In this document: piece by piece, positions 1,172-13,706 of the stretch
How the letters are laid out: every line of letters begins with the position of its first letter
How positions within the stretch are numbered: the first letter of the stretch is position 1
Source of the DNA: a virus
UHGV virus genome: UHGV-0080740
Reading direction: 5' to 3' (one strand)
DNA length: 23,502 nt
Position numbers and translations under genes: made by a program
Notes under the pieces: generated by a model
Seen by the model: the letters and a program-made list of their open reading frames with translations, nothing else
Database searches by the model: none
What the model was told of the DNA's origin: nothing

Positions 1172-4100
1172 GTGGTGTTTTTTATTCCTGATGTTTTTTT
1201 GTTGTGGTTTCAGAACGGTGAGATTCGGGGCCCGCGCGTTAGCGTGGGAGGTGCTCCTGTTCTTGGTACTGATGGCACTCCAGTTATGCGCGATGCCCTA
1301 AAACTGGCAGATGAAGCCACTATCACGGCGCGGATGAACGCGATCCCGCACTCAAATTACCGTGCAGTCGTGTTTACCAAAGAACAATACGCCCGCATTC
1401 CGCTACGTGATGACACCGTAGATGAGCATGCACAGGATATGCTTTATGACTTCGTTGCCGCCGGGCGCGTAGCCAGCGCAATGGACTCCGACTCCCACCG
1501 CAAAGAGGCCGCGCGTCGCCGGGTATTGTCGGAGTATTCAGATACCGGTACCGAAAAAGCAGAGAAGTATCCGTACTTTGAGGATATGGGCTTCGATAGT
1601 GTGATCGCTGACGAAGGTCACAACTACCGCAATAGCTATAAAAATGGTCGCGAAGCGTCACAACTGGCCTATCTGCCCACCAGCGCGGTGGCGCAATCGG
1701 CGCGGGATATGGCAATTAAAAACGCGTACCTGATGAAAAAGAATGGTGGGCGCGGACCGGTTCTCCTGACTGCAACGCCAGTCGTTAACACCCCGATCGA
1801 TGCATACAACATGCTTTCTCATGTGCTGCCGAAGGAATACTGGCAGAAGATGGGGATCTACGGTCCTGATGACTTCGTTAAATTCTTCGGCAAGACCAGG
1901 CTGGAAACGGTACAGAAAATCAGCGGTGAAGTTGAAGAAAAAATGGCGCTGGTGGGCTTTGAAAACCTTGATGCGCTGCGCGGCATATTCCATCGCTGGA
2001 CAACGCTTAAAACGGCGGAAGACGTTAAGGATACCGTGGAGATCCCGGAACTGGACGAACACCAGCAGGATGCACCACTTACTGAAGAACAACTGGCGGC
2101 GTATGAAGAATTACGCCAGCAGGCGGAAGCGGTGGCCAAAGCCAACAATGGCGTAACGACCTCGGTCGATGAAGACGGAGTGATTGAGCACGAGAAAGCC
2201 CGTCCGATCTTCTCAATAATCAGGGATATGGACCGCGTATGTACTGACATGGACCTGTACTATCGCCGGATCACCTATCGTTTCCTGCCGGAGTACGCCG
2301 ATGCGGTGCAGCAGCTGGCGGACAGTTTGCCTAAACAAGCCACCAGCGAAGACGACGACAGTGATGATTCAATCACGCAGCAATCGCAATACTCCCTGAT
2401 AGATAAGGGCGAGTTTATTCAGTTGCAGGTTCCGGAAGCGTTCGAGCAGGAAGTGAATAAGCGCCTGGCCAGGTTTGGCATTGACGAACAGACCGTAACT
2501 CACCCCGTTACGCCCAAATACGCGAAGCTGATTGCCACGCTGAAGGAGTTTTTCCCGGAAGGGAAGCAAATCATCTTCACCGACGAAAAAACGCAGCACC
2601 AGAAGCTCAAGCGCATTATCTGCAATGTTCTTAACCTTGAACCTTCAATGGTAGGGATCCTGAATGCTCAGACGGTTGCCGAGGCAGGTAAAACCGGTAA
2701 GAAACTGAAAGCGGTTAAACCGCCGAAAGAGTTACCGGATGAACCAACAGATGCACAGATAGCGAAATACAACGAGCAAATGGCTCTGTATGACGCCTAT
2801 ATCGCGCAGCAAAATGAAATGTCGTTGGGCGGTCTGGAAAAGATTGCAGCCGACTTCCAGGAGGGCCGGACTCCGATCATTATCTGCAACAAAAAGGCAG
2901 AGGTGGGTATCAACCTGCATCGAGGAACGACTGACATCCATCATCTGACGTTGCCATGGACACCAGCCAGTGTCGCACAGCGTAACGGTCGCGGTGCCCG
3001 AGTTGGCTCCAACCGTGCAAGCGTTCGCGTTCATTACTACTGCGGCAAGGGTTCTTTCGATGAATACCGACTGAAGACGCTGAAGCGTAAAGCAGGCTGG
3101 ATCTCCGATATCCTCCGTTCAGATAAGTCAGAAATGGAGAACGCCGACGCCAACGATATGATCGAAATGCAGATGTATACCGCTAAGGATGATGGCGAAC
3201 GTCTGGCAATGATGCAGGTTCAAATGGATAAGGCGAAAGCCGCGCAACGCGCCCGCCAGAAAGAACAGGCCGCTATCGACCTTCAGAACTACATCAAGGC
3301 GCAACATGCAGCTGGCGAGGATGTTGCGGCTCTTACCGCTGAATTAGAGCGAAGTAAAGCGGAACTTGAAAAGACCACCGCCGAGGTAGCTAAATTCAAA
3401 CAGGCGGTAATGGCCAAAGCAGCTGATAATGCAGGCTGGAAGGCCCGCTGGGGTAGCGTCCATCACACAGACCGTACGTTGTTAGCACATTATCGCGCGT
3501 CGTTGAAAAGCGCCATTCAGCGCAAGGCTAATATCACTCAAGCCATCTCCCGCTATGAGAAATTATTGAACCGTACTCAGAAGGCCGCGACGGATATCAA
3601 ACGCCTGCGCCCGCTGGTGGAGGATGCAATAAATAAAGGCATTCTGGATGTTGATCCTGATCTGGTTAACCATGCGAATGAGTTCCTTGTTATCGGCGAT
3701 CGCTCATGGCGTGTAGGCCAATACTACGATTGTGCCGGTGATATCGTTCGCATTAAGTCGCTGGACTTCGACAGCCAGCGCGCAGACGTGGAGATCATCT
3801 TTACCTTCAAAGGCACCAAATCGGGTAACTGGGATGTGAAGACGCTGGATAAACAGGTGGATGTAACTCCCGATGAAGATGCTGTTATGCAGAAAATCAG
3901 TGGTGGCGTCTCCATCGCCGGGATTAACGACATCATTTCCTGTGACGATTTCTACCGTTTCCAGCAGCGCGGCATGATCAAAATCACTGACTCATACGGC
4001 GTTCAGACTACAGAGTCAGGCTATAGCATTGATTTTGTTGGTACCTATACGGACCCACTGAAGCATGCGGTTTACCCGGATCGCCGTGACGGCGCGCTGA

Positions 4101-5224
4101 AGTCGTCAATTGCAAAATGGGTGCTTGGTATGATGTCGGAAGGGAATAACCGCCAGGTCCGTTTGGCAGAAGTATTCCTGACTGAACTGTTTGGCTCCAA
4201 TTATGGCGAAGTAATCGCGTCATACGGAGATACGCTATCCCCTGAAGCAATTCAGGAGAAAATAGCGGATGCGATCGCCAGAATGCCGGAGAAAACAAGC
4301 CAGGGGGCTACTCGTAACGGGGATTCTGAACTTGAGGTCACCAATGCCATTTTCGGTACCCATGAGTTCCGGGCGTCAGATTATGAGATCACCACAGCAC
4401 AGTTTGGCACCATTGGCATTTACAGCAATAAAGACGAGATCAAGCAGGCAATGGACGCTGCAAGCGCGCGTATTGCAGCAGAACGGAAAGCCAATCTGAA
4501 TCATGCAGTCGCCGCGCTGACTCAATCGTGGGTAACAGCAATCAGGGAGGCCGCCACCACAGGGAAAATCACACCGGCAATTGCGGATGTCGTAAACGAC
4601 GGCTCTAAATTTATGGATGCCTATCAAATGGATGCGGTGCAGTTGCCATCAGCCTATGGGCAACTCAGCTATCGCATGACCTACAACCTGGTATCAATGT
4701 TTTCCGACCTTGCCATCCTTGGGCTGGTGGACCTTAACGAGGTTACGCCGGAATTGCTTAGCATGCGCAAGAATCATGTTGAGATATTGCAGAGAATTAA
4801 CACGGTTCTTGCCGGGCGCACCGATGAAGAGAAACAGGCCGACGCTGATCGGATAAACCTGGCCCTAGGCAACATCACGGAGGAAGAAATTGCCGCCAGA
4901 AACGAGAAACAAGAAGAGTTATCATCAATACAGGGTGATGCCACCAGCATAGCTCAGTCTCTTGGTCTGAATTATCGCGTATCCACCGCCGACCTGAAGA
5001 TGATGTACGCACCAAAATTCGCAGCTGGTGAGGTATTTGGGCTTCAGGAGGCGTCCGGCATGAAAGGCGTTCTTTTCCGTGCTAAAGACGCAATCAAGGA
5101 AAAATTCGGCGCTCGCTGGCTGCCAGCGAAGGCGAAGAACAGCGATTTCCCGGGCAACTGGTGGATTATCGAGACAAAACACAACGTGGCGGACGTTCTG
5201 GCCGTCATCCAACAATACGCATAA
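1172..5224 (+). CDS. darB: SF2 helicase-domain protein, DarB-like, apparently 5'-truncated (1350 aa from GTG)
   Basis: Helicase motifs II (IADEGH), III (TATPVVN) and VI (QRNGRGARVG) present, no Walker A upstream; in-frame TGA at 1145-1147; position upstream of ulx/lxc-like genes fits P1 darB (about 2255 aa, recalled). Confidence 0.6.
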   Translation: MVFFIPDVFLLWFQNGEIRGPRVSVGGAPVLGTDGTPVMRDALKLADEATITARMNAIPHSNYRAVVFTKEQYARIPLRDDTVDEHAQDMLYDFVAAGRVASAMDSDSHRKEAARRRVLSEYSDTGTEKAEKYPYFEDMGFDSVIADEGHNYRNSYKNGREASQLAYLPTSAVAQSARDMAIKNAYLMKKNGGRGPVLLTATPVVNTPIDAYNMLSHVLPKEYWQKMGIYGPDDFVKFFGKTRLETVQKISGEVEEKMALVGFENLDALRGIFHRWTTLKTAEDVKDTVEIPELDEHQQDAPLTEEQLAAYEELRQQAEAVAKANNGVTTSVDEDGVIEHEKARPIFSIIRDMDRVCTDMDLYYRRITYRFLPEYADAVQQLADSLPKQATSEDDDSDDSITQQSQYSLIDKGEFIQLQVPEAFEQEVNKRLARFGIDEQTVTHPVTPKYAKLIATLKEFFPEGKQIIFTDEKTQHQKLKRIICNVLNLEPSMVGILNAQTVAEAGKTGKKLKAVKPPKELPDEPTDAQIAKYNEQMALYDAYIAQQNEMSLGGLEKIAADFQEGRTPIIICNKKAEVGINLHRGTTDIHHLTLPWTPASVAQRNGRGARVGSNRASVRVHYYCGKGSFDEYRLKTLKRKAGWISDILRSDKSEMENADANDMIEMQMYTAKDDGERLAMMQVQMDKAKAAQRARQKEQAAIDLQNYIKAQHAAGEDVAALTAELERSKAELEKTTAEVAKFKQAVMAKAADNAGWKARWGSVHHTDRTLLAHYRASLKSAIQRKANITQAISRYEKLLNRTQKAATDIKRLRPLVEDAINKGILDVDPDLVNHANEFLVIGDRSWRVGQYYDCAGDIVRIKSLDFDSQRADVEIIFTFKGTKSGNWDVKTLDKQVDVTPDEDAVMQKISGGVSIAGINDIISCDDFYRFQQRGMIKITDSYGVQTTESGYSIDFVGTYTDPLKHAVYPDRRDGALKSSIAKWVLGMMSEGNNRQVRLAEVFLTELFGSNYGEVIASYGDTLSPEAIQEKIADAIARMPEKTSQGATRNGDSELEVTNAIFGTHEFRASDYEITTAQFGTIGIYSNKDEIKQAMDAASARIAAERKANLNHAVAALTQSWVTAIREAATTGKITPAIADVVNDGSKFMDAYQMDAVQLPSAYGQLSYRMTYNLVSMFSDLAILGLVDLNEVTPELLSMRKNHVEILQRINTVLAGRTDEEKQADADRINLALGNITEEEIAARNEKQEELSSIQGDATSIAQSLGLNYRVSTADLKMMYAPKFAAGEVFGLQEASGMKGVLFRAKDAIKEKFGARWLPAKAKNSDFPGNWWIIETKHNVADVLAVIQQYA

Positions 5225-5230
5225 CAGGAG

Positions 5231-5248
5231 CGCCCGGTTCGCCGGGCG
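5231..5248 (+). other. stable RNA hairpin (7-bp GC stem, UUCG tetraloop) between SD and start codon of next gene
   Basis: cgcccgg-ttcg-ccgggcg; AGGAG at 5226-5230 and ATG at 5258 are 27 nt apart, about 9 nt if the hairpin folds. Confidence 0.5.
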
Positions 5249-5257
5249 TCGCATAAT

Positions 5258-5698
5258 ATGGCCACACTATCTGATACAATAAAACCGAATAAAACATATC
5301 TTGAGGCGGTACTCCGTACAGCGTTGTTAGGAAAGACAGAAGACGAATACGTTGATTTCTTCCTGTCAGGGCTACGCGGGCGATTACTGAAAAATCCCCG
5401 CCTGTACCGCAGCTATGGCCCATACTGGCCGGAAATTAAAAAATTATTACTGGAGCGCGGTTATGGTAATTTCGGTCGTCTCGTTGACCGTGACGTTCGC
5501 AAATTTTACCGTTATGACCGCCCGGCGCTAACACTCATAGCCGCGACGCTCTACAGCCAGGAGCGTTTTGATAATGGTCAGATATACTCAGCCTGGCATT
5601 TACTGCCAGTCCCTGAAGAAGTTGACGACCAGGACTATGAGTTTGAGTCTTACGATTTGGAAGTTGAAGCCTTGGCACAGGCTGGAGAGAAAACTTGA
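5258..5698 (+). CDS. hypothetical protein, 146 aa (ulx position, upstream of lxc)
   Basis: Clean ORF between darB-like and lxc-like genes; stop overlaps next start; name is positional only. Confidence 0.55.
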   Translation: MATLSDTIKPNKTYLEAVLRTALLGKTEDEYVDFFLSGLRGRLLKNPRLYRSYGPYWPEIKKLLLERGYGNFGRLVDRDVRKFYRYDRPALTLIAATLYSQERFDNGQIYSAWHLLPVPEEVDDQDYEFESYDLEVEALAQAGEKT

Positions 5699-5943
5699 AA
5701 AAGCGATACTACACAGTAAAGCATGGGACGCTACGAGCATTACAAGAGTTTGCTGACAAGCATAACGTTGAGGTGCGCAGGGAAGGGGGAAGTAAAGCTC
5801 TGCGCATGTACCGTCCGGACGGGAAATGGCGGACGGTCGTCGATTTCAAAACAAACAGCGTTCCCCAGGGCGTCCGCGACCGGGCATTCGAAGAATGGGA
5901 GCAGATCATCATAGATAATGCTCTGCTACTAAATGCTGACTGA
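5695..5943 (+). CDS. lxc: Lxc/Bof-like C1 co-repressor, 82 codons with TTG start
   Basis: 82-codon ORF starting at TTG with SD GGAGA 5 nt upstream; matches my recollection that P1 bof/lxc is an 82-codon TTG-initiated ORF. Confidence 0.55.
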   Translation: MKKRYYTVKHGTLRALQEFADKHNVEVRREGGSKALRMYRPDGKWRTVVDFKTNSVPQGVRDRAFEEWEQIIIDNALLLNAD

Positions 5944-6202
5944 GTTTAATATTACAATATTATCTGGGAGATAAATGCATCTTATTTCCCAGATGATAAC
6001 TGATGTTTTACATATTCACATGGTGTACAATTATAATACTGCCTAAATAGGCACACAAAGTACGATATGCTACTAAAACCACAACTTTTTGATACTTGTT
6101 TGAGGGGGCGGGTTTGCTTTAGTAATTTAATAGCAAAAGCCATTCGTGTATCAAGTAATAACTTACTGAAGGAGGTGTTTTCTAATAAGAGTTTTTTCTT
6201 TA

Positions 6203-6715
6203 TTAAACTCTCACTATGTATAGATAATCAGTTAAGTCTCTTAGTTTCCAATGTTTAGATACATCTGAAAGAAATATGCTGCGTACTTTCCCTGAGAAAG
6301 TAGGCATACCAGACTTAAGAAAAGCTCTAAGGTTGTCAACATCACTAAAAATTGAAAGTAATGAAAAAGTTAAAGCATCCTTAAAATCAGGATGTATATG
6401 ATTCTGGTCACTTATATTATCGATCATCCTGATTAATAAATCAGGATAAGCAAAAGACTTTTTTAGCAAATGTGGGCATTTATCCAGAAGTTGCTTCCCT
6501 TGGTGATTGTGACAAGATAAATAGTTTCTTACAGCACTATCATTAAGTTCGAATTCGATATATTTATCTGAATAGGTTTGTAAGAATTCGCGTTCAGAAT
6601 GTTTAAGCAACAGCACATCACCATAATTTAATATTAAGAAATCCTTAAGAAATTGAAAATTTATCGGTTTCTTTATAAGGATGAAGTAACAGACTCCTGA
6701 CATAGCTACCACCAT
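6203..6715 (-). CDS. hypothetical protein, 166-170 aa, AT-rich cargo gene (alternative start at 6703)
   Basis: Only long ORF on this strand in the AT-rich island; GGTGG precedes ATG at 6703; no recognisable domain; contains R-x5-H (AVRNYLSCH). Confidence 0.5.
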   Translation of the reverse strand: MVVAMSGVCYFILIKKPINFQFLKDFLILNYGDVLLLKHSEREFLQTYSDKYIEFELNDSAVRNYLSCHNHQGKQLLDKCPHLLKKSFAYPDLLIRMIDNISDQNHIHPDFKDALTFSLLSIFSDVDNLRAFLKSGMPTFSGKVRSIFLSDVSKHWKLRDLTDYLYIVRV

Positions 6716-6855
6716 TCTAAAGAGGCTTTGAACAAGAATAGAGATACAGCAGCACTGAAATCAAGAAGTTGTGCAAAAAATAAAAATATTGATTTGTGTC
6801 ATAGTTGCTGCTTTTTATTATTTAATTTTTATCAATTTCACTACAGATAAATAAA

Positions 6856-6887
6856 TTGACATAGTGTGTAACCCCTGTAAATATAAA
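6856..6887 (+). promoter_or_regulatory. candidate sigma70 promoter for the EAL-domain gene
   Basis: TTGACA at 6856-6861, about 16-17 bp spacer, A/T-rich -10-like TAAATA/TATAAA, about 50 bp upstream of ATG 6938. Confidence 0.35.
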
Positions 6888-6937
6888 GGGCACTTTATCT
6901 GCTAAAGCCAACCAATTTAAAAATAGAGGGTGGGAGC

Positions 6938-7627
6938 ATGGAAGTTATCTACATAGTAGAACCAATCATTTCCACAAGCACTAACAAGTTGATAGCAGTG
7001 GAAGTGTTGAGCAGATTTTATTCCAACGAGGGGGCTATTCTTTCTACTCAGAAAGTATTAGGTATGTTTACAAGCAAGATGAAGATTAACTTGCTAAAAT
7101 CTCAACTTAACACAATAATCAAATATAAGTATTTTTTTGAATGCCATAATATATTATGCTCTATCAATGTAGATTATGATACCTGTTTATATATATATGG
7201 CAATAAACAAATTCAAGAACTACTAATAAACAATAAATTTATAGCGATTGAGATATCAGAAAACTATCCTGATTTAAGCGATGAGGATTACATCATATCC
7301 TTTCTACTGACTTTGACAGATAATGTTTGGCTTGATGATTTTGGAAGTGGTAACGCCACCATGAAAGCATTAATTAAAAATAAATATCATGCAATAAAAC
7401 TTGATAAGTCATTTTTTCAAGAGCATATGATTAAGCCTCATTTTGATGTCATTATTAGCAATTTAAAAAAGTTATGTCCGAATATCATCGCTGAAGGCGT
7501 CGAAAACATTGATTGTCATAAGTTATCAAAAGGGATAGGGCTATGGGGCACTCAGGGATATTTTTTCCCATCAATTCCGCTGACGGAGATTGAGTCCATA
7601 GATAGTAAGTGGCTATCAGATTTATGA
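6938..7627 (+). CDS. stand-alone EAL-domain protein, YdiV-like, 229 aa
   Basis: EAL signatures in order: EVLSR (EAL variant), EISE, DDFGSGNATMKAL, KLDKSF, EGVE, QGYFF; no sensor or GGDEF domain; strong SD GGGTGGGAG. Confidence 0.8.
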   Translation: MEVIYIVEPIISTSTNKLIAVEVLSRFYSNEGAILSTQKVLGMFTSKMKINLLKSQLNTIIKYKYFFECHNILCSINVDYDTCLYIYGNKQIQELLINNKFIAIEISENYPDLSDEDYIISFLLTLTDNVWLDDFGSGNATMKALIKNKYHAIKLDKSFFQEHMIKPHFDVIISNLKKLCPNIIAEGVENIDCHKLSKGIGLWGTQGYFFPSIPLTEIESIDSKWLSDL

Positions 7628-7680
7628 GATGCAGAGAGTTAGGATATTGATATGAACATCTAAGCACCTCATTACTGTGC

Positions 7681-8133
7681 TTAAAAGATGTTATCCTTAC
7701 CTGTTAATTTACCTTGAGGAACTTTAGTGAGCTCCATCCGATAAAATGCTTTTATCATATTTACAAATGGCTCATATGGTGAATATTCGTTGTCTTGTTT
7801 AGTAACGGTGTCTGTCATTGTCCTGATGTAGTCTGCGCTTACCACGTTGTTGTTTGCTTCAATTAGTACCGGCCTGCCGTTCATGAAGGGATCACGCAAC
7901 CTTACACGCTGGCCAACTCGACCGGTAATAAAGCTGTTTTCCTCTTCCACCAGCACGATAAAACCCTTTTCCTCTTTTTCTCGCAATTCGCGCAGCAGCT
8001 GGAGTTCCATATCGCGGCGGCGTTCAGGGTAGCTGGTCCGCTCAGCCATTATCAGCTCATTGTTGATCCATGCAGCAGTCATTGACGCCGGTTTGCCGAC
8101 GCTCATTGAAACAACGCATATTTTCTTATCCAT
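7681..8133 (-). CDS. hypothetical protein, about 150 aa (P1 mat position, between ref and the variable locus)
   Basis: ORF with SD AGGGG before ATG at 8133 (track ORF begins at GTG 8160); name is positional only. Confidence 0.5.
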   Translation of the reverse strand: MDKKICVVSMSVGKPASMTAAWINNELIMAERTSYPERRRDMELQLLRELREKEEKGFIVLVEEENSFITGRVGQRVRLRDPFMNGRPVLIEANNNVVSADYIRTMTDTVTKQDNEYSPYEPFVNMIKAFYRMELTKVPQGKLTGKDNIF

Positions 8134-8321
8134 AGCGCCCCTACAAAAAAGAAAAGCCACCAGCGGCGGCTTAGCAATACAACTGAAGGTAGCGCCCGGT
8201 ACTCAGACTGTGCCGTCCATGGAATATTTGAAAGGGGATCCATCCGTACCGGGCATGTGATGATTCTGACTGAAGTCACTTGTCAGTTGTCAATCATTTA
8301 TCATTAAAAATAATATATTTA

Positions 8322-8882
8322 TTAGTGCATGATGTTTGCCATCTCATAGGCGTCAGCCAGTAACTCCATCTCTGACTTGTTCAGCAGGGTGAATTCTTTC
8401 TTGCCTCCAACCACACCATCGGCATGAACAGGGACCAGCCAGGGGTATTTTGCTCTTACTTCAGCCGGAGCTGCATGCTGGTGGTGCCATCTACAAAGAG
8501 GCAATTGCTTTTTATGACAACCCGGCGCGGTACGACCGGCGATATGGTGCAGAGACATCTCATTAGATATTACTCCATGCATATAGCAGGCAATGCAGGG
8601 GAGAGTGCCAAGAGCATTGGCGATGCGCCGTTCCTCCGCCGTTGGTGTTCTCCCCTTCAAGCCACGAGATTTTATTTTTACCGCGCTTTTCCGCGTTTTG
8701 CTGGCTGGTGGGCGCTCTTTCTGTTTAGCGATACGGCGGTCGAGAGTATCCCGCATTTTCTGATATTGAGATTCTCGCCAGACCGGATCAGCCAACTTCT
8801 CCCGTTGCCGAGCGATCGCTCGTTCTCTGGCTGCCTTCTGCCACTTGCGGCACTGTTCAATTTTTTGTTCGATTGTTTTCAT
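8322..8882 (-). CDS. ref: Ref, HNH-family recombination enhancement endonuclease, 186 aa
   Basis: MKTIEQKIEQCRKWQ... with Cys/His cluster CIACYMHG...HHIAG...CHKK...CRWHH, recognised as P1 Ref; C1 operator upstream. Confidence 0.9.
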   Translation of the reverse strand: MKTIEQKIEQCRKWQKAARERAIARQREKLADPVWRESQYQKMRDTLDRRIAKQKERPPASKTRKSAVKIKSRGLKGRTPTAEERRIANALGTLPCIACYMHGVISNEMSLHHIAGRTAPGCHKKQLPLCRWHHQHAAPAEVRAKYPWLVPVHADGVVGGKKEFTLLNKSEMELLADAYEMANIMH

Positions 8883-8886
8883 ATGG

Positions 8887-8913
8887 CAAAAAAAAGGCGG
8901 CCTAATGGCCGCC
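8887..8913 (-). terminator. rho-independent terminator/attenuator just upstream of ref ATG
   Basis: On - strand GGCGGCC-ATTA-GGCCGCC followed by T8, ending 5 nt before ref start, downstream of ref operator/promoter. Confidence 0.55.
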
Positions 8914-8980
8914 AATGATGTCAAGGAGTGAAGTAATGGCAACGTCTTCGTAGTTGACAAAAACTGCGGCTCAATTATAG

Positions 8981-8997
8981 CGATCTATTAGAGCAAT
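8981..8997 (-). promoter_or_regulatory. C1 operator (Op2-like) overlapping ref promoter
   Basis: - strand ATTGCTCTAATAGATCG matches C1 operator consensus ATTGCTCTAATAAATTT; TATAAT follows on - strand. Confidence 0.75.
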
Positions 8998-9102
8998 GAT
9001 AGATATTTTGTTTATCGCTAATCACATTTTTTCACTTCAGTACCTGTGTGCTATACTCCTTCTTGATTGATTGGATGCGGAATACAAACCCGCTCTTTTG
9101 TG

Positions 9103-9129
9103 CAGCCTGGCTCCTTGCCAGGCTTTTTT
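9103..9129 (+). terminator. hairpin with T8 run (+ strand terminator; on - strand a 5' structure preceding the CCAATCAATCA motif)
   Basis: gcctggc-tcctt-gccaggc followed by tttttttt. Confidence 0.45.
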
Positions 9130-9441
9130 TTATTTCATCATGGAAGTTGTTAACGCTTTGGACCTTGCTGAACTGATTGAGAGGGCTTTGTCAACGTGCC
9201 CCAAAAATTCGCCAAACGCAGACATCACTTTAGCAAAACCGCGCCGTGCTTCTTCCTCGGTGGCATTCATCACGAAATGTTCAGCACCACGCATACTTTT
9301 GACAGGGAACGCAACGGATATTGAATCAATATCAGGCATTCTATCGCTCAGCTTTACAGTGACAATGACGGCTGGCGACTGAATATTAGTGCTTACAGAC
9401 AGCACTACATATTTTCCGTCGATGTTGAAATCCTTTCTCAT
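9130..9441 (-). CDS. hypothetical protein, 103 aa (cra position, downstream of cre)
   Basis: SD GGTGA 3 nt before ATG; C1-operator-like site upstream; preferred over the overlapping + strand ORF 9071-9382, which lacks such signals. Confidence 0.45.
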   Translation of the reverse strand: MRKDFNIDGKYVVLSVSTNIQSPAVIVTVKLSDRMPDIDSISVAFPVKSMRGAEHFVMNATEEEARRGFAKVMSAFGEFLGHVDKALSISSARSKALTTSMMK

Positions 9442-9457
9442 ATGTCACCATAAATAT

Positions 9458-9474
9458 CAAAGAATTAGAGCAAT
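9458..9474 (-). promoter_or_regulatory. C1-operator-like site upstream of the 103-aa gene
   Basis: - strand ATTGCTCTAATTCTTTG, about 12/17 match to operator consensus. Confidence 0.5.
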
Positions 9475-9491
9475 CATTTACGCGTTAATGG

Positions 9492-10523
9492 CTAATCGCC
9501 ATCTTCCAGAAGGCGCACCATTGCCCCTGTTTCACTATCCAGGTTACGGATATAGTTCATGACAATATTTACGTTGGTCCAGCCACCAGCTTGCATGATC
9601 TCCGGTATTGAAACTCCGGCACGGGCCATATCTCGCGCGGCTCCGACACGGGCACTGTGTCCAGACCAGGCCAGGTACCTCTGGCCAGAGTCATCCTTAG
9701 CCCCGTAAATCAATCGGTGAGTTGCTTCAAAAATCCCTTCCAGGGCGCGAGTTGATAGCTGGCTGGTGGGTGATGGCGAGGCAACACCATTTTTTCTGAC
9801 CCGGCAAAACAAGTAGTTATTCGGATCATCAGCCACACCAGAGACAGAAATCCATCGTTCGACCAGTTTAGTTACCCCCAGGCTAAGTGCCTTCTCTACA
9901 CCCGCGGTACTAACCAGAGTTTTCGTTCTGCCAATATGGATTAGCATTCTCCCACCGTCTGTACGTGAGATATCTTTAACCCTGATCCTGGCAATTTCGG
10001 CTATACGTAACAGGGTGTTATAAGCGATCCCCAGAAATGCCAGATTACGTATATCCTGGCAGCGATCGCTATTTTCCATGAGTGAACGAACCTGGTCGAA
10101 ATCAGTGCGTTCGAACGCCAATGCCTGTTTTGCACGTTCACCGGCATCAACGTTTTCTTTTCGAATCCGCCGCATGACCAGTGAAACAGCATTGCTGTCA
10201 CTTGGTCGTGGCAGCCCGGACCGACGATGAAGCATGTTTAGCTGGCCCAAATGTTGCTGGATAGTTTTTACTGCCAGACCGCGCGCCTGAAGATATAGAA
10301 GATAATCGCGAACATCTTCAGGTTCTGCGGGAAACCACTTCCGGTTATTCAACTTGCACCATGCCGCCCACGACCGGCAAACGGACAGAAGCATTTTCCA
10401 GGTATGCTCAGAAAACGCCTGGCGATCCCTGAACATGTCCATCAGGTTCTTGCGAACCTCATCACTCGTTGCATCGACCGGTAATGCAGGCAAATTTTGG
10501 TGTACGGTCAGTAAATTGGACAT
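9492..10523 (-). CDS. cre: Cre tyrosine recombinase, 343 aa
   Basis: MSNLLTVHQNLPALPVDATSDEVRKNLMDMFRDRQAFSEHTWK... recognised as P1 Cre with a few substitutions; loxP 419 bp upstream. Confidence 0.97.
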   Translation of the reverse strand: MSNLLTVHQNLPALPVDATSDEVRKNLMDMFRDRQAFSEHTWKMLLSVCRSWAAWCKLNNRKWFPAEPEDVRDYLLYLQARGLAVKTIQQHLGQLNMLHRRSGLPRPSDSNAVSLVMRRIRKENVDAGERAKQALAFERTDFDQVRSLMENSDRCQDIRNLAFLGIAYNTLLRIAEIARIRVKDISRTDGGRMLIHIGRTKTLVSTAGVEKALSLGVTKLVERWISVSGVADDPNNYLFCRVRKNGVASPSPTSQLSTRALEGIFEATHRLIYGAKDDSGQRYLAWSGHSARVGAARDMARAGVSIPEIMQAGGWTNVNIVMNYIRNLDSETGAMVRLLEDGD

Positions 10524-11676: not shown

Positions 11677-12528
11677 ATGATAAATTATGTCTACGGCGAA
11701 CAACTGTACCAGGAGTTCGTCAGCTTCAGGGATCTCTTTCTAAAAAAAGCTGTTGCACGCGCCCAACACGTTGATGCCGCCAGCGACGGTCGTCCTGTTC
11801 GCCCGGTTGTCGTTCTGCCGTTCAAAGAAACGGACAGCATTCAGGCTGAAATTGATAAATGGACTTTAATGGCGCGGGAACTGGAACAGTACCCAGACCT
11901 CAATATCCCAAAGACTATTTTATATCCAGTGCCTAACATCCTTCGCGGTGTACGTAAGGTTACAACTTATCAGACAGAAGCTGTGAACAGCGTCAACATG
12001 ACCGCTGGCCGCATTATTCATCTGATTGATAAGGATATTCGCATCCAAAAAAGCGCGGGGTTCAATGAGCACAGTGCGAAATACATAGAGAACCTGGAAG
12101 CAACAAAAGAGCTAATGAAGCAGTACCCGGAGGATGAAAAATTCCGTATGCGCGTACACGGCTTTAGCGAAACAATGCTGCGCGTCCACTACATTTCCAG
12201 TAGCCCTAACTACAATGATGGTAAATCAGTTAGTTACCATGTGCCACTGTGTGGCGTGTTTATCTGCGATGAAACCCTCCGTGATGGAATCATCATCAAC
12301 GGTGAATTCGAGAAAGCAAAATTTAGCCTTTATGACTCCATAGAACCGATCATCTGCGACCGCTGGCCGCAGGCAAAAATATATCGCCTGGCAGATATTG
12401 AAAATGTAAAAAAACAAATTGCCATCACTCGCGAAGAGAAAAAGGTCAAATCAGCCGCATCAGTTACGCGCAGTCGTAAAACTAAGAAGGGGCAGCCAGT
12501 AAACGACAACCCCGAAAGCGCGCAATAA
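11677..12528 (+). CDS. c1: C1 repressor of lysis, 283 aa
   Basis: MINYVYGEQLYQEFVSFRDLFLKKAVARAQ... recognised as P1 C1; SD GGAGG. Confidence 0.95.
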   Translation: MINYVYGEQLYQEFVSFRDLFLKKAVARAQHVDAASDGRPVRPVVVLPFKETDSIQAEIDKWTLMARELEQYPDLNIPKTILYPVPNILRGVRKVTTYQTEAVNSVNMTAGRIIHLIDKDIRIQKSAGFNEHSAKYIENLEATKELMKQYPEDEKFRMRVHGFSETMLRVHYISSSPNYNDGKSVSYHVPLCGVFICDETLRDGIIINGEFEKAKFSLYDSIEPIICDRWPQAKIYRLADIENVKKQIAITREEKKVKSAASVTRSRKTKKGQPVNDNPESAQ

Positions 12529-12560: not shown

Positions 12561-13706
12561 TTATTCAGCCGCCACCGGTTTTAACAAGCCAGCATCGAGC
12601 AGTTTACGCGTCAACCACTGTTGTCCTTTCCCCGTTAATTGGGGCGTCAGCCGTATCTGGTAGCCATCTTCATCATCCAGCACCACTTCTTTCACTGTGA
12701 AATATCCGGCGTTTATGTACTGCTGGAACGGCACATTTTTACGCCCGCCGGACGCTATCAGAATGCCGTTCTCCCGTAACCAGGCAAACAGCGCGTTTTG
12801 CTTCAGCCCAACAACCTTTGCAAAATTACCAATCAGGATCCCCTTAGCCACTGATACACGGTCGGCAAAATCGACCTTGGGGGCTGCGGCCACCAGTTGT
12901 TGATTTAGCTGGTGGGCCTTCTGTTCCAGTAGCTGCTTTTGTTCAGCCAGCTCGGCAGCCAGGCGCAAGGCTTCAGGTAGTGTTTGGGGGATTGCGACCG
13001 GTTGCTGTTCTTTTTGCCGGAAGTAGCTGTCTTCCAGTTTTTCAAAGAATGCCCATGCTTCATCTGTGTTTACGATCTTAGACATGCGTGCCGCTCCGCG
13101 TTCGGCCCAAAGAATTACCTGGCTTGTATATTTGCTAACCAGGTGACTAGTAGTCACCAGCCTTTTAAATTCCTTTAATTTTGAACCAGTTAAGAGATAG
13201 TAATGCTTACCTTCTTCAAAGCGATCGGAGTTGCGAGACAAATTTTTACGAATATTAGCTTCATCGGTTCCATACCCCTTAGCAAGAGTTTCGGTCGTTA
13301 CTACACGCACTCCCAGCCATTCCAGAACGGGAATTTCATCAGACTGATTCTGAACAACCACCAGCTCTGATTCCTGAACTGAAGTTGCATGAATTTTTTC
13401 TGATTTAACGTTAGTTGCTTTCATTCTGTGTGCCTCCTTGCGTGCTTCGGCTGCGACGGTTGCGTAATTCAGATGACCCTGTTCGAGCAGGTATTCACGG
13501 ATATCGGTCACAGCGATAGCCTTTAAGCGCAGATAAACATCGCGCTTATCGACATCCAGATGCGGGTATTCCTTTTCAAGAATTGCTGCGAGTTCTTTCG
13601 CTGATAGAAGAGATTTAGTGCGGATCATGTAATCCGCAATCTCGTACGATGTTATTCGTGAGTGATTTATTTCCATGAAGTGGCGTCCCTGCCAGTTAAG
13701 TAACAT
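12561..13706 (-). CDS. antirepressor-like protein with KilA-N/ORF6N-type and KilAC (ANT) domains, 371-381 aa
   Basis: Central segment VRVVTTETLAKGYGTDEANIRKNLSRNSDRFEEGKHYYLLTG fits ORF6N/KilA-N; C-terminus GILIGNFAKVVGLKQNALFAWLRENGIL...NVPFQQYINAGYFTV fits KilAC; alternative start at 13676. Confidence 0.7.
   Translation of the reverse strand: MLLNWQGRHFMEINHSRITSYEIADYMIRTKSLLSAKELAAILEKEYPHLDVDKRDVYLRLKAIAVTDIREYLLEQGHLNYATVAAEARKEAHRMKATNVKSEKIHATSVQESELVVVQNQSDEIPVLEWLGVRVVTTETLAKGYGTDEANIRKNLSRNSDRFEEGKHYYLLTGSKLKEFKRLVTTSHLVSKYTSQVILWAERGAARMSKIVNTDEAWAFFEKLEDSYFRQKEQQPVAIPQTLPEALRLAAELAEQKQLLEQKAHQLNQQLVAAAPKVDFADRVSVAKGILIGNFAKVVGLKQNALFAWLRENGILIASGGRKNVPFQQYINAGYFTVKEVVLDDEDGYQIRLTPQLTGKGQQWLTRKLLDAGLLKPVAAE

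Follow-up and report, generated by a model that had tools for sequence, protein, structure and literature searches.

A stand-alone EAL-domain protein encoded by a P1-type phage-plasmid element is probably an active cyclic di-GMP (c-di-GMP) phosphodiesterase that would lower c-di-GMP in the cells carrying it. The gene lies at positions 6938–7627, on the plus strand, of a 23,502-nucleotide stretch of the virus genome UHGV-0080740 (hereafter, the window). Its open reading frame (ORF) starts with ATG, encodes 229 amino acids followed by a stop codon, and is preceded by a Shine–Dalgarno sequence, AGAGGG, at 6925–6930, 7–8 nt 5′ of the ATG. The protein keeps the full set of metal-binding and catalytic residues and for this reason is most likely a working enzyme rather than a dead regulator of the YdiV type. 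What is new here is an uncharacterised protein of a known family in an unusual phage location, encoded by a prevalent gene.

From its domain, fold and conservation, we infer that the protein would act as a metal-dependent (Mg2+/Mn2+) EAL enzyme that linearises c-di-GMP to pGpG. Its gene would be carried as accessory cargo, together with a YdeO-like regulator, in the slot between mat and lxc of P1-type phage-plasmids, and would be expressed in the plasmid-prophage state independently of that regulator, which is frameshifted in the window. Low c-di-GMP in Escherichia coli raises motility and lowers formation of curli/cellulose biofilm. A fall in the c-di-GMP pool of carrier cells would be expected to favour flagellar motility, with less braking by YcgR, and to reduce CsgD-dependent curli and cellulose.

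Domain, active site and fold of the EAL protein

The Pfam EAL model (PF00563) matched the 229-residue protein with E = 2.1e-17 and a score of 63.7 bits against a cut-off of 31.3, over profile positions 18–233 of 236, a match far above chance level. Motifs in the translation include EVL at residues 22–24 (within EVLSR, 22–26), N77, EISE at 105–108, DDFGSG at 133–138, KLDKSF at 154–159, EGVE at 186–189, and QGY at 206–208. The ORF and all of the EAL motifs named in an initial annotation of this DNA are thus present where they had been placed, and alignment to active and inactive EAL proteins, the check which that annotation had proposed, indicated that the motif matches are genuine (Pfam, E = 2.1e-17; STM1697, E = 1.6e-28). 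A domain scan found the EAL domain only, with neither a sensor nor a GGDEF domain, confirming the description of a stand-alone protein of about the size of YdiV.

To score the active site, we used a yardstick of 13 residues of active EAL domains (PMC11537037), consisting of four c-di-GMP contacts, seven metal ligands, a loop-6 stabiliser, and a water-coordinating Glu, in an alignment of 123 stand-alone EAL proteins with PdeH, YdiV, STM1697 and YahA. The EAL protein retains 12 of the 13 residues (E22, R26, N77, E105, E108, D133, D134, K154, D156, E186, E189 and Q206), and the sole change is Gln to Glu at residue 8. The metal ligands and catalytic residues E22, N77, E105, E108, D133, K154, E186, E189 and Q206 are all present and are invariant in the clade to which the protein belongs; among the c-di-GMP contacts, R26, D134 and D156 are kept, and the Gln of the QP motif is E8. 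Glu replaces Gln at the QP position in 84 of the 123 aligned stand-alone proteins. Most compact stand-alone EAL proteins akin to YdiV and STM1697 have Glu at this position and retain all metal ligands.

An 18-position signature of the active site reads ELRNEEDDFGGNKDEEQG in the EAL protein and ELRNEEDDFGGYKDEEQG in active YahA/PdeL, which is identical at 17 of the 18 positions, compared to EIHNLEGNLGGNMDGDQG in YdiV and EIHNQEGDLGGNKDGEQG in STM1697, the two inactive factors. YdiV lacks equivalents of D133, D134, K154, E186, E105 and R26, all six of which the EAL protein has, and STM1697 has G for D133, G for E186, Q for E105, and H for R26, four positions at which the EAL protein is unchanged. 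At the scored catalytic positions, the EAL protein retains 12 of 12 residues and YdiV retains 5 of 12; in YdiV, 8 of 10 catalytic residues are not preserved. E108 of the EAL protein aligns with E136 of PdeH, and the E136A variant of PdeH is catalytically dead in vivo and serves as a standard dead control (PMC6401482).

The initial annotation read the EVL variant and missing loop residues as signs of degeneracy, but both features occur in active enzymes. EVL is also the motif of active YahA/PdeL in our alignment, and ExL is the accepted form of the EAL motif (PMC12943098). An FxPxAEE-type loop is indeed absent, as had been noticed, with FIPLAESSGLIVIM of YahA aligning with VLGMFTSK and a five-residue gap. 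This five-residue shortening at the FIPxAE stretch, however, is a trait of the compact stand-alone EAL class that active PdeH shares, and the position of the FIPxAE Glu is occupied by Thr in PdeH and by Thr or Ser in most compact stand-alone EAL proteins. Loop 6 of the EAL protein is DFGSGNATM (134–142), in which DFGSGNAT matches DFG(T/A)GYSS at five of eight positions; the corresponding loops are DFGTGMAN in active PdeH and DFGTGYAT in YahA. Judged from these alignments, loop 6 of the EAL protein diverges from DFG(T/A)GYSS about as far as that of active PdeH.

An AlphaFold2 (AF2) model built from 21 sequences had a predicted local distance difference test score of 93 and a predicted template-modelling (TM) score of 0.89 and showed the EAL TIM-barrel fold. 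A Foldseek search of the PDB gave 103 matches at E ≤ 1e-3, and all 50 that were listed are EAL or EAL-like structures. Foldseek TM scores of this predicted structure were 0.88 for YdiV, 0.84–0.91 for STM1697, and 0.76 for YahA. The closest solved sequence was STM1697 (PDB 5hxg), with E = 1.6e-28, compared to 4e-19 for YdiV and 1e-8 for active YahA/PdeL. PdeH/YhjH (NF008617) was the top NCBIfam model, but its score of 91.9 bits did not reach the 190-bit equivalog cut-off, indicating that the EAL protein is not a PdeH orthologue. By sequence, the protein can be placed in a compact enterobacterial EAL-only subclass that also contains PdeH, which is active, and YdiV and STM1697, which are inactive.

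Selection, distribution and genomic setting

Relatives in the clade of the EAL protein, from 99% down to 27–35% identity, all retain the same 12 residues. These relatives comprise P0001–P0013 from P1-like and IncF plasmids, P0015, P0016 and P0036 at 43–50% identity, and others down to P0021–P0025; copies on IncF plasmids and copies beside fimbrial, haemolysin, and serine protease autotransporter (SPATE) islands are included. In a neighbour-joining tree, which was built without bootstrap support and is a rough guide only, the clade lies inside a large super-group characterised by E8, most members of which keep 11–12 of the 12 residues. The lineages of STM1697 and YdiV, which are degenerate, branch from within this super-group, and the EAL protein is nearer to the STM1697 group than to PdeH. 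The ratio of nonsynonymous to synonymous substitution rates (dN/dS) was 0.15 against the 91%-identical allele of CP007393 (dS 0.32) and 0.13 against an IncF homologue, and the gene is under purifying selection. We used dN/dS between diverged alleles because near-identical copies reflect recent spread; for the same reason, an ORF that stays intact, at ≥99% identity, across 121 or more genomes is weak evidence for selection.

Of 5,426 complete E. coli genomes, 137 carry the EAL gene, and 134 of its places are on plasmids. P1 cre occurs in 695 of the same genomes, and carriers of the EAL gene thus amount to about a fifth of the number of cre carriers. The res gene of EcoP1I was found in 88 genomes, with 57 places on plasmids, where the EAL gene (134) is commoner. 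One chromosomal copy of the EAL gene that we examined belongs to an integrated P1-like element. Among 50,697 phage records, close homologues of the protein were confined to P1-like records. OP279344 (5019–5708), the genome sequence of a P1vir laboratory stock that served for infection assays (bioRxiv 10.1101/2022.09.09.507302), carries the EAL gene and its AraC-family neighbour as a cassette in place of res/mod, with an EAL protein that is 99.6% identical and annotated as hypothetical; the EAL gene is therefore packaged in a working phage. In NC_050153, the virion isolate vB_EcoM-Ro157c2YLVW (4058–4747), a frameshift in the EAL gene, located after about codon 177, gives a 199-residue product without EGVE and QG. 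This phage is viable, indicating that the EAL gene is dispensable for lytic growth. Other truncated variants of the gene exist. In OQ595196 ('Salmonella phage SJ1', 24.5 kb; 5001–5690), the same EAL gene has IS1 and a Tn21 mer operon as neighbours; this record appears to be a piece of a plasmid, and its label, 'ydiV anti-FlhC(2)FlhD(4) factor', looks like an over-annotation.

Less similar homologues occur in other settings. One at 67% identity forms the same divergent pair with an AraC-family gene on an IncFII plasmid, beside a ParE/RelB toxin–antitoxin system. A 50%-identical homologue (P0016) closes a pap-like fimbrial operon at its 3′ end, a position that parallels that of sfaY in sfa, and a SPATE autotransporter gene and hlyCA come next; on a plasmid, a 46%-identical homologue adjoins a SPATE gene. 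The S-fimbrial operon also encodes an EAL protein, SfaY/PdeY, which is distantly related. These occurrences on IncF plasmids and on fimbrial, SPATE and haemolysin islands, which are linked to virulence and adhesion, show that the family travels on E. coli plasmids and islands as mobile cargo for host behaviour rather than serving a phage-specific function. A search of 185,579 species representatives found no chromosomal donor of the cassette, the best match being 32% identical. Relatives at ≤32% identity in that set came from Yersinia, Serratia, Pantoea and Enterobacter, with Gln at the QP position in 9 of 10 loci checked and a truncated ORF call in the tenth. The nearest cluster representatives are named generically throughout as 'EAL domain-containing protein', and PHROG 32988 lists the EAL protein under 'unknown function'. 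The BFVD set of viral structures yielded no EAL fold, and a literature search on EAL proteins of P1-like elements and phage-encoded EAL phosphodiesterases returned nothing specific to this protein.

The features of the gene and its surroundings in the window are as follows.

6938–7627, plus strand: stand-alone EAL-domain gene (ORF, Pfam, alignments, AF2 model)
5982–6715, minus strand: YdeO/GadX-like AraC-family regulator, a pseudogene here (ORFs, profile search)
6716–6937: divergent intergenic control region (sequence, allele alignment)
5940–7853: segment without a counterpart in classical P1 (blastn against NC_005856, composition)
5958–5998: terminator-like hairpin with a 17-bp stem at the left cassette edge, between the stop codons of lxc and the AraC-like gene
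5695–5943, plus strand: lxc (bof), the left flanking P1 gene (ORF, P1 annotation)
7681–8160, minus strand: mat, on the right flank and convergent with the EAL gene (ORF, alignment)

The initial annotation had placed the gene on a phage-plasmid, and the flanks bear this out: blastn gave 97–98% DNA identity to P1 (NC_005856) on both sides of the cassette, with DarB, Ulx and Lxc encoded on the left and Mat, Ref, C8 and Cre on the right. The cassette, two divergent genes for the EAL protein and the AraC-family regulator, is ~1.9 kb long and has a GC content of 29–36% (~5950–7680), compared to roughly 50% in the flanks. In classical P1, the same slot holds the 3′ end of mat together with res and mod, which encode the EcoP1I type III restriction–modification system, and an undeleted cassette allele replaces P1 coordinates 3337–9753.

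The AraC-like gene has a 1-bp deletion near 6215/6216 that splits the N-terminal domain (170-residue ORF) from the helix–turn–helix (53-residue ORF). The gene is labelled 'frameshifted' by PGAP in the identical plasmid pMRE162, and of 107 E. coli genomes matched by an 80-bp probe over the lesion, 85 were 100% identical to it. An intact 240-residue allele scored 151.7 bits on the NCBIfam YdeO model, below the 348-bit cut-off, and is closest to YdeO and GadX. In OP279344, the AraC-like gene has a 21-bp in-frame deletion near the site of the window lesion; three other alleles are intact (240 residues). The window and OP279344 alleles, both with a lesion in the AraC-like gene, also both lack 15–19 bp of the intergenic region, a stretch that the three intact-regulator alleles retain. 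A consensus TTGACA (6856–6861) is followed 16–17 bp later by TAAATA / TGT-AAATAT (6876–6884), and it is the loss of the 15–19 bp that puts these −35- and −10-like elements into register. The deletion may therefore have created a candidate sigma-70-like, regulator-independent promoter alongside decay of the regulator. A scan for operators of the P1 C1 repressor found none in the cassette, the nearest being Oref at 8981–8997. Because there is no C1 operator and the putative promoter is in register, expression of the EAL gene in the plasmid-prophage state is probable and would not depend on the regulator.

Other parts of the element differ from classical P1. Compared to OP279344 and NC_050153, mat has a 192-bp in-frame deletion at 7853/7854, and in all cassette-bearing elements the 3′ end of mat departs from that of P1 past P1 position 3336. 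The darB gene (1256–5224) is truncated at its 5′ end, with P1 homology beginning at 1256, and is joined to a RelE/ParE–Phd/YefM toxin–antitoxin segment (1–1255) found widely on conjugative plasmids of enterobacteria; across this junction segment, the 76.8-kb plasmid pMRE162 matches at 100% identity. With its truncated darB fused to a toxin–antitoxin segment, the element in the window looks like an eroded P1 derivative. A 381-residue ORF on the minus strand (12561–13706), adjoining c1 (11677–12528) in an arrangement unlike that of classical P1, combines an N-terminal segment like Lpa (late promoter activator) with ORF6N and KilAC antirepressor domains.

Weighing the proposed functions

The initial annotation offered three functions for the EAL protein: a c-di-GMP phosphodiesterase, a counter-defence enzyme, and a YdiV-like regulator of motility. 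The phosphodiesterase is clearly favoured, the counter-defence enzyme found no support, and a regulator of the YdiV type is the main rival. An anti-FlhD4C2 factor like YdiV or STM1697 would act by binding FlhD to repress class II flagellar genes and could do so either with no catalysis or as a bifunctional, c-di-GMP-responsive trigger enzyme; the resulting lysogen would be less flagellated, with possible benefits in immune evasion or exclusion of flagellotropic phages. We regard this function as unlikely, even though the sequence matches STM1697 far better than any other PDB entry (1.6e-28, compared to 1e-8 for YahA), the fold is closest to those of YdiV and STM1697, the E8 super-group of the tree holds the clade together with the nested STM1697 and YdiV lineages, and the OQ595196 record annotates the protein as ydiV. 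The likeness to YdiV that the initial annotation noted is real in size and in closest solved relatives, but does not extend to degeneracy, as the EAL protein keeps residues that are missing from both YdiV and STM1697. Among compact EAL proteins, all known FlhD binders have lost catalytic residues, and if catalysis were irrelevant there would be no reason for 12 catalytic residues to be invariant down to 27% identity.

The FlhD-binding surfaces themselves give a mixed picture. The FlhD interface of STM1697 consists of 11 residues, with F160 and L173 central and K167, K175 and H176 as polar contacts (PMC5622320). In the EAL protein, F160 (F159) and K167 (K166) are identical, and four positions are conservative, namely V147 (I146), L172 and L173 (V171 and I172), and the one held by F135 of the EAL protein. 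However, the polar contacts K175 (S174) and H176 (N175) are lost, V115 and L116 are replaced by S114 and D115, and L179 of the EAL protein differs from its counterpart. The retained positions are structural across the class, with F, L, L, Y and C in the same helix of active PdeH; because they are also present in this active enzyme, the kept residues do not discriminate, and we did not count the conserved STM1697 interface positions in favour of FlhD binding. Of the key residues of YdiV (PMC3510510), F155 corresponds to I146, F168 to F159, F181 to a gap, and A184 to V171, so that F168 alone is retained, and its equivalent lies within the universal KxDxSF motif. A combined function, in which the protein is a phage-carried trigger EAL intermediate between PdeH-type enzymes and the YdiV/STM1697 regulators that both hydrolyses c-di-GMP and docks on FlhD or another host regulator through a YdiV-like helix surface, is quite unlikely. 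If it held, P1-type elements would reprogramme host motility and biofilm formation, for example for lysogen spread or for shielding from flagellum- or matrix-dependent phages, and the mat–lxc slot would swap a defence system, EcoP1I, for a behaviour-modifying one.

The slot that holds EcoP1I in classical P1, next to the anti-restriction genes darB and ulx, could also suggest an enzyme that destroys a cyclic-dinucleotide immune signal of the CBASS type, such as 3′3′-cGAMP, to protect the P1/plasmid state. EAL folds are otherwise nearly absent from phages, and stand-alone VcEAL (PDB 6ifq), deposited as a cyclic-dinucleotide phosphodiesterase, is a weak match to the EAL protein. Such a counter-defence role nevertheless appears highly improbable: PADLOC-DB gave no match for the EAL protein, the intact AraC-like protein or Mat; the AraC–EAL pair and its relatives occur in non-phage contexts, including IncF plasmids, pathogenicity islands, and fimbrial, SPATE and haemolysin genes; the partner is a regulator of the YdeO/GadX type, which acts on host physiology; the residue set is that of c-di-GMP-specific EAL proteins; and NC_050153 is a viable phage despite its frameshifted EAL gene. 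It is very unlikely that the window element carries the gene as hitch-hiking cargo, silent or in decay and without a present function, although the element is eroded (a frameshifted AraC-like gene, the 192-bp mat deletion, and 5′-truncated darB), the EAL gene itself is frameshifted in one phage isolate and truncated in other variants, and AT-rich DNA is typically silenced by H-NS. Against decay stand the dN/dS of ~0.13–0.15 across diverged alleles and the invariance of the catalytic residues. That 121 or more genomes have the ORF intact at ≥99% identity also counts against decay, but with little weight given recent spread.

Several points weigh against an active phosphodiesterase. The nearest relatives in both sequence and backbone are two inactive FlhD binders, STM1697 and YdiV, and full activity of many EAL proteins requires dimerisation. 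YdiV does not dimerise (PMC3510510). In the EAL protein, the substrate-contacting Gln of the QP motif is replaced by Glu (E8), and loop 6 appears partly degenerate in the alignment; such degeneracy can lead to down-regulation in about half of EAL domains, and retention of catalytic residues is no guarantee of activity, as the GGDEF protein GdpS illustrates (review, PMC10333796). The promoter in the intergenic region is our proposal rather than a predicted site, because its −10 element fails the rule of the promoter scan, which missed this candidate and found no more sites than in shuffled sequence. The ~30% GC cassette may be silenced by H-NS, and its regulator is a pseudogene. A literature search also returned no biochemical or genetic test of the EAL protein or its immediate clade.

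With these points taken into account, an active c-di-GMP phosphodiesterase is still the function that we favour. Enzymes of c-di-GMP metabolism are very rare on phages. P1-type plasmids often carry resistance genes, and an active EAL protein would mean that many of them shift the motility/biofilm switch of their hosts and that experiments with P1vir may bring in an unnoticed c-di-GMP phosphodiesterase. The protein also offers a natural contrast for the changes that made EAL enzymes into FlhD-binding regulators.

Comparison with characterised EAL proteins

STM1697 has the same compact EAL-only fold and a length of ~230 residues, aligns over residues 3–221, and shares with the EAL protein Glu at the QP position, the GNAT tail of loop 6, and a short alpha2 region. 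STM1697 differs in that it neither binds nor hydrolyses c-di-GMP (PMC5622320), and only 2 of its 11 FlhD-contact residues are identical in the EAL protein. YdiV (RflP, STM1344; PDB 3tlq, 4es4) is likewise a stand-alone EAL protein of similar length and is the top structural match; its loop-6 tail, GNSTMKA, resembles GNATMKA of the EAL protein, but its four-residue insertion bearing F181 is missing from the latter.

Other relatives show what small or acquired EAL proteins can do. Active PdeL/YahA (PDB 4lj3, 4lyk) has EVL, as does the EAL protein, but is a two-domain LuxR–EAL transcription factor with a canonical long alpha2 (FIPLAESSGLIVIM). SfaY/PdeY and other acquired EAL-only proteins of E. 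coli are small, lie on mobile DNA, and have Glu at the QP position; SfaY, however, is 24% identical and lacks R26 and D156, and no protein of the SfaY/PdeY group is phage-borne. Among YdiV-related stand-alone EAL proteins, El Mouali et al. in 2017 reportedly found that intact YE2225 is a working phosphodiesterase and that its close paralogue YE1324 is an FlhD-type regulator. The mix of intact and degenerate members in our rough tree agrees with that picture. YE2225, from Yersinia enterocolitica, has been used as an active phosphodiesterase with catalytic-mutant controls (PMC6401482), and PdeY reportedly has a part in biofilm regulation upon over-expression (PMC5635171). We also considered PdeU1–3 of Cimdins et al. 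as the identity of the EAL protein and rejected them, as they are different, Tn21-type proteins.

PdeH/YhjH, the motility-dedicated c-di-GMP phosphodiesterase of E. coli, is the only characterised active compact EAL-only protein. Like the EAL protein, it has an ExL motif (ELL), DDFG, EGVE and QG, and does without the FIPxAE Glu; its loop 6 diverges to a similar extent. Unlike the EAL protein, with which it shares ~24% identity, PdeH has Gln at the QP position and is encoded by a chromosomal flagellar class III gene. The P1-borne EAL protein is most like PdeH in its predicted action, most like STM1697 and YdiV in its resemblance, and an orthologue of none of the three.

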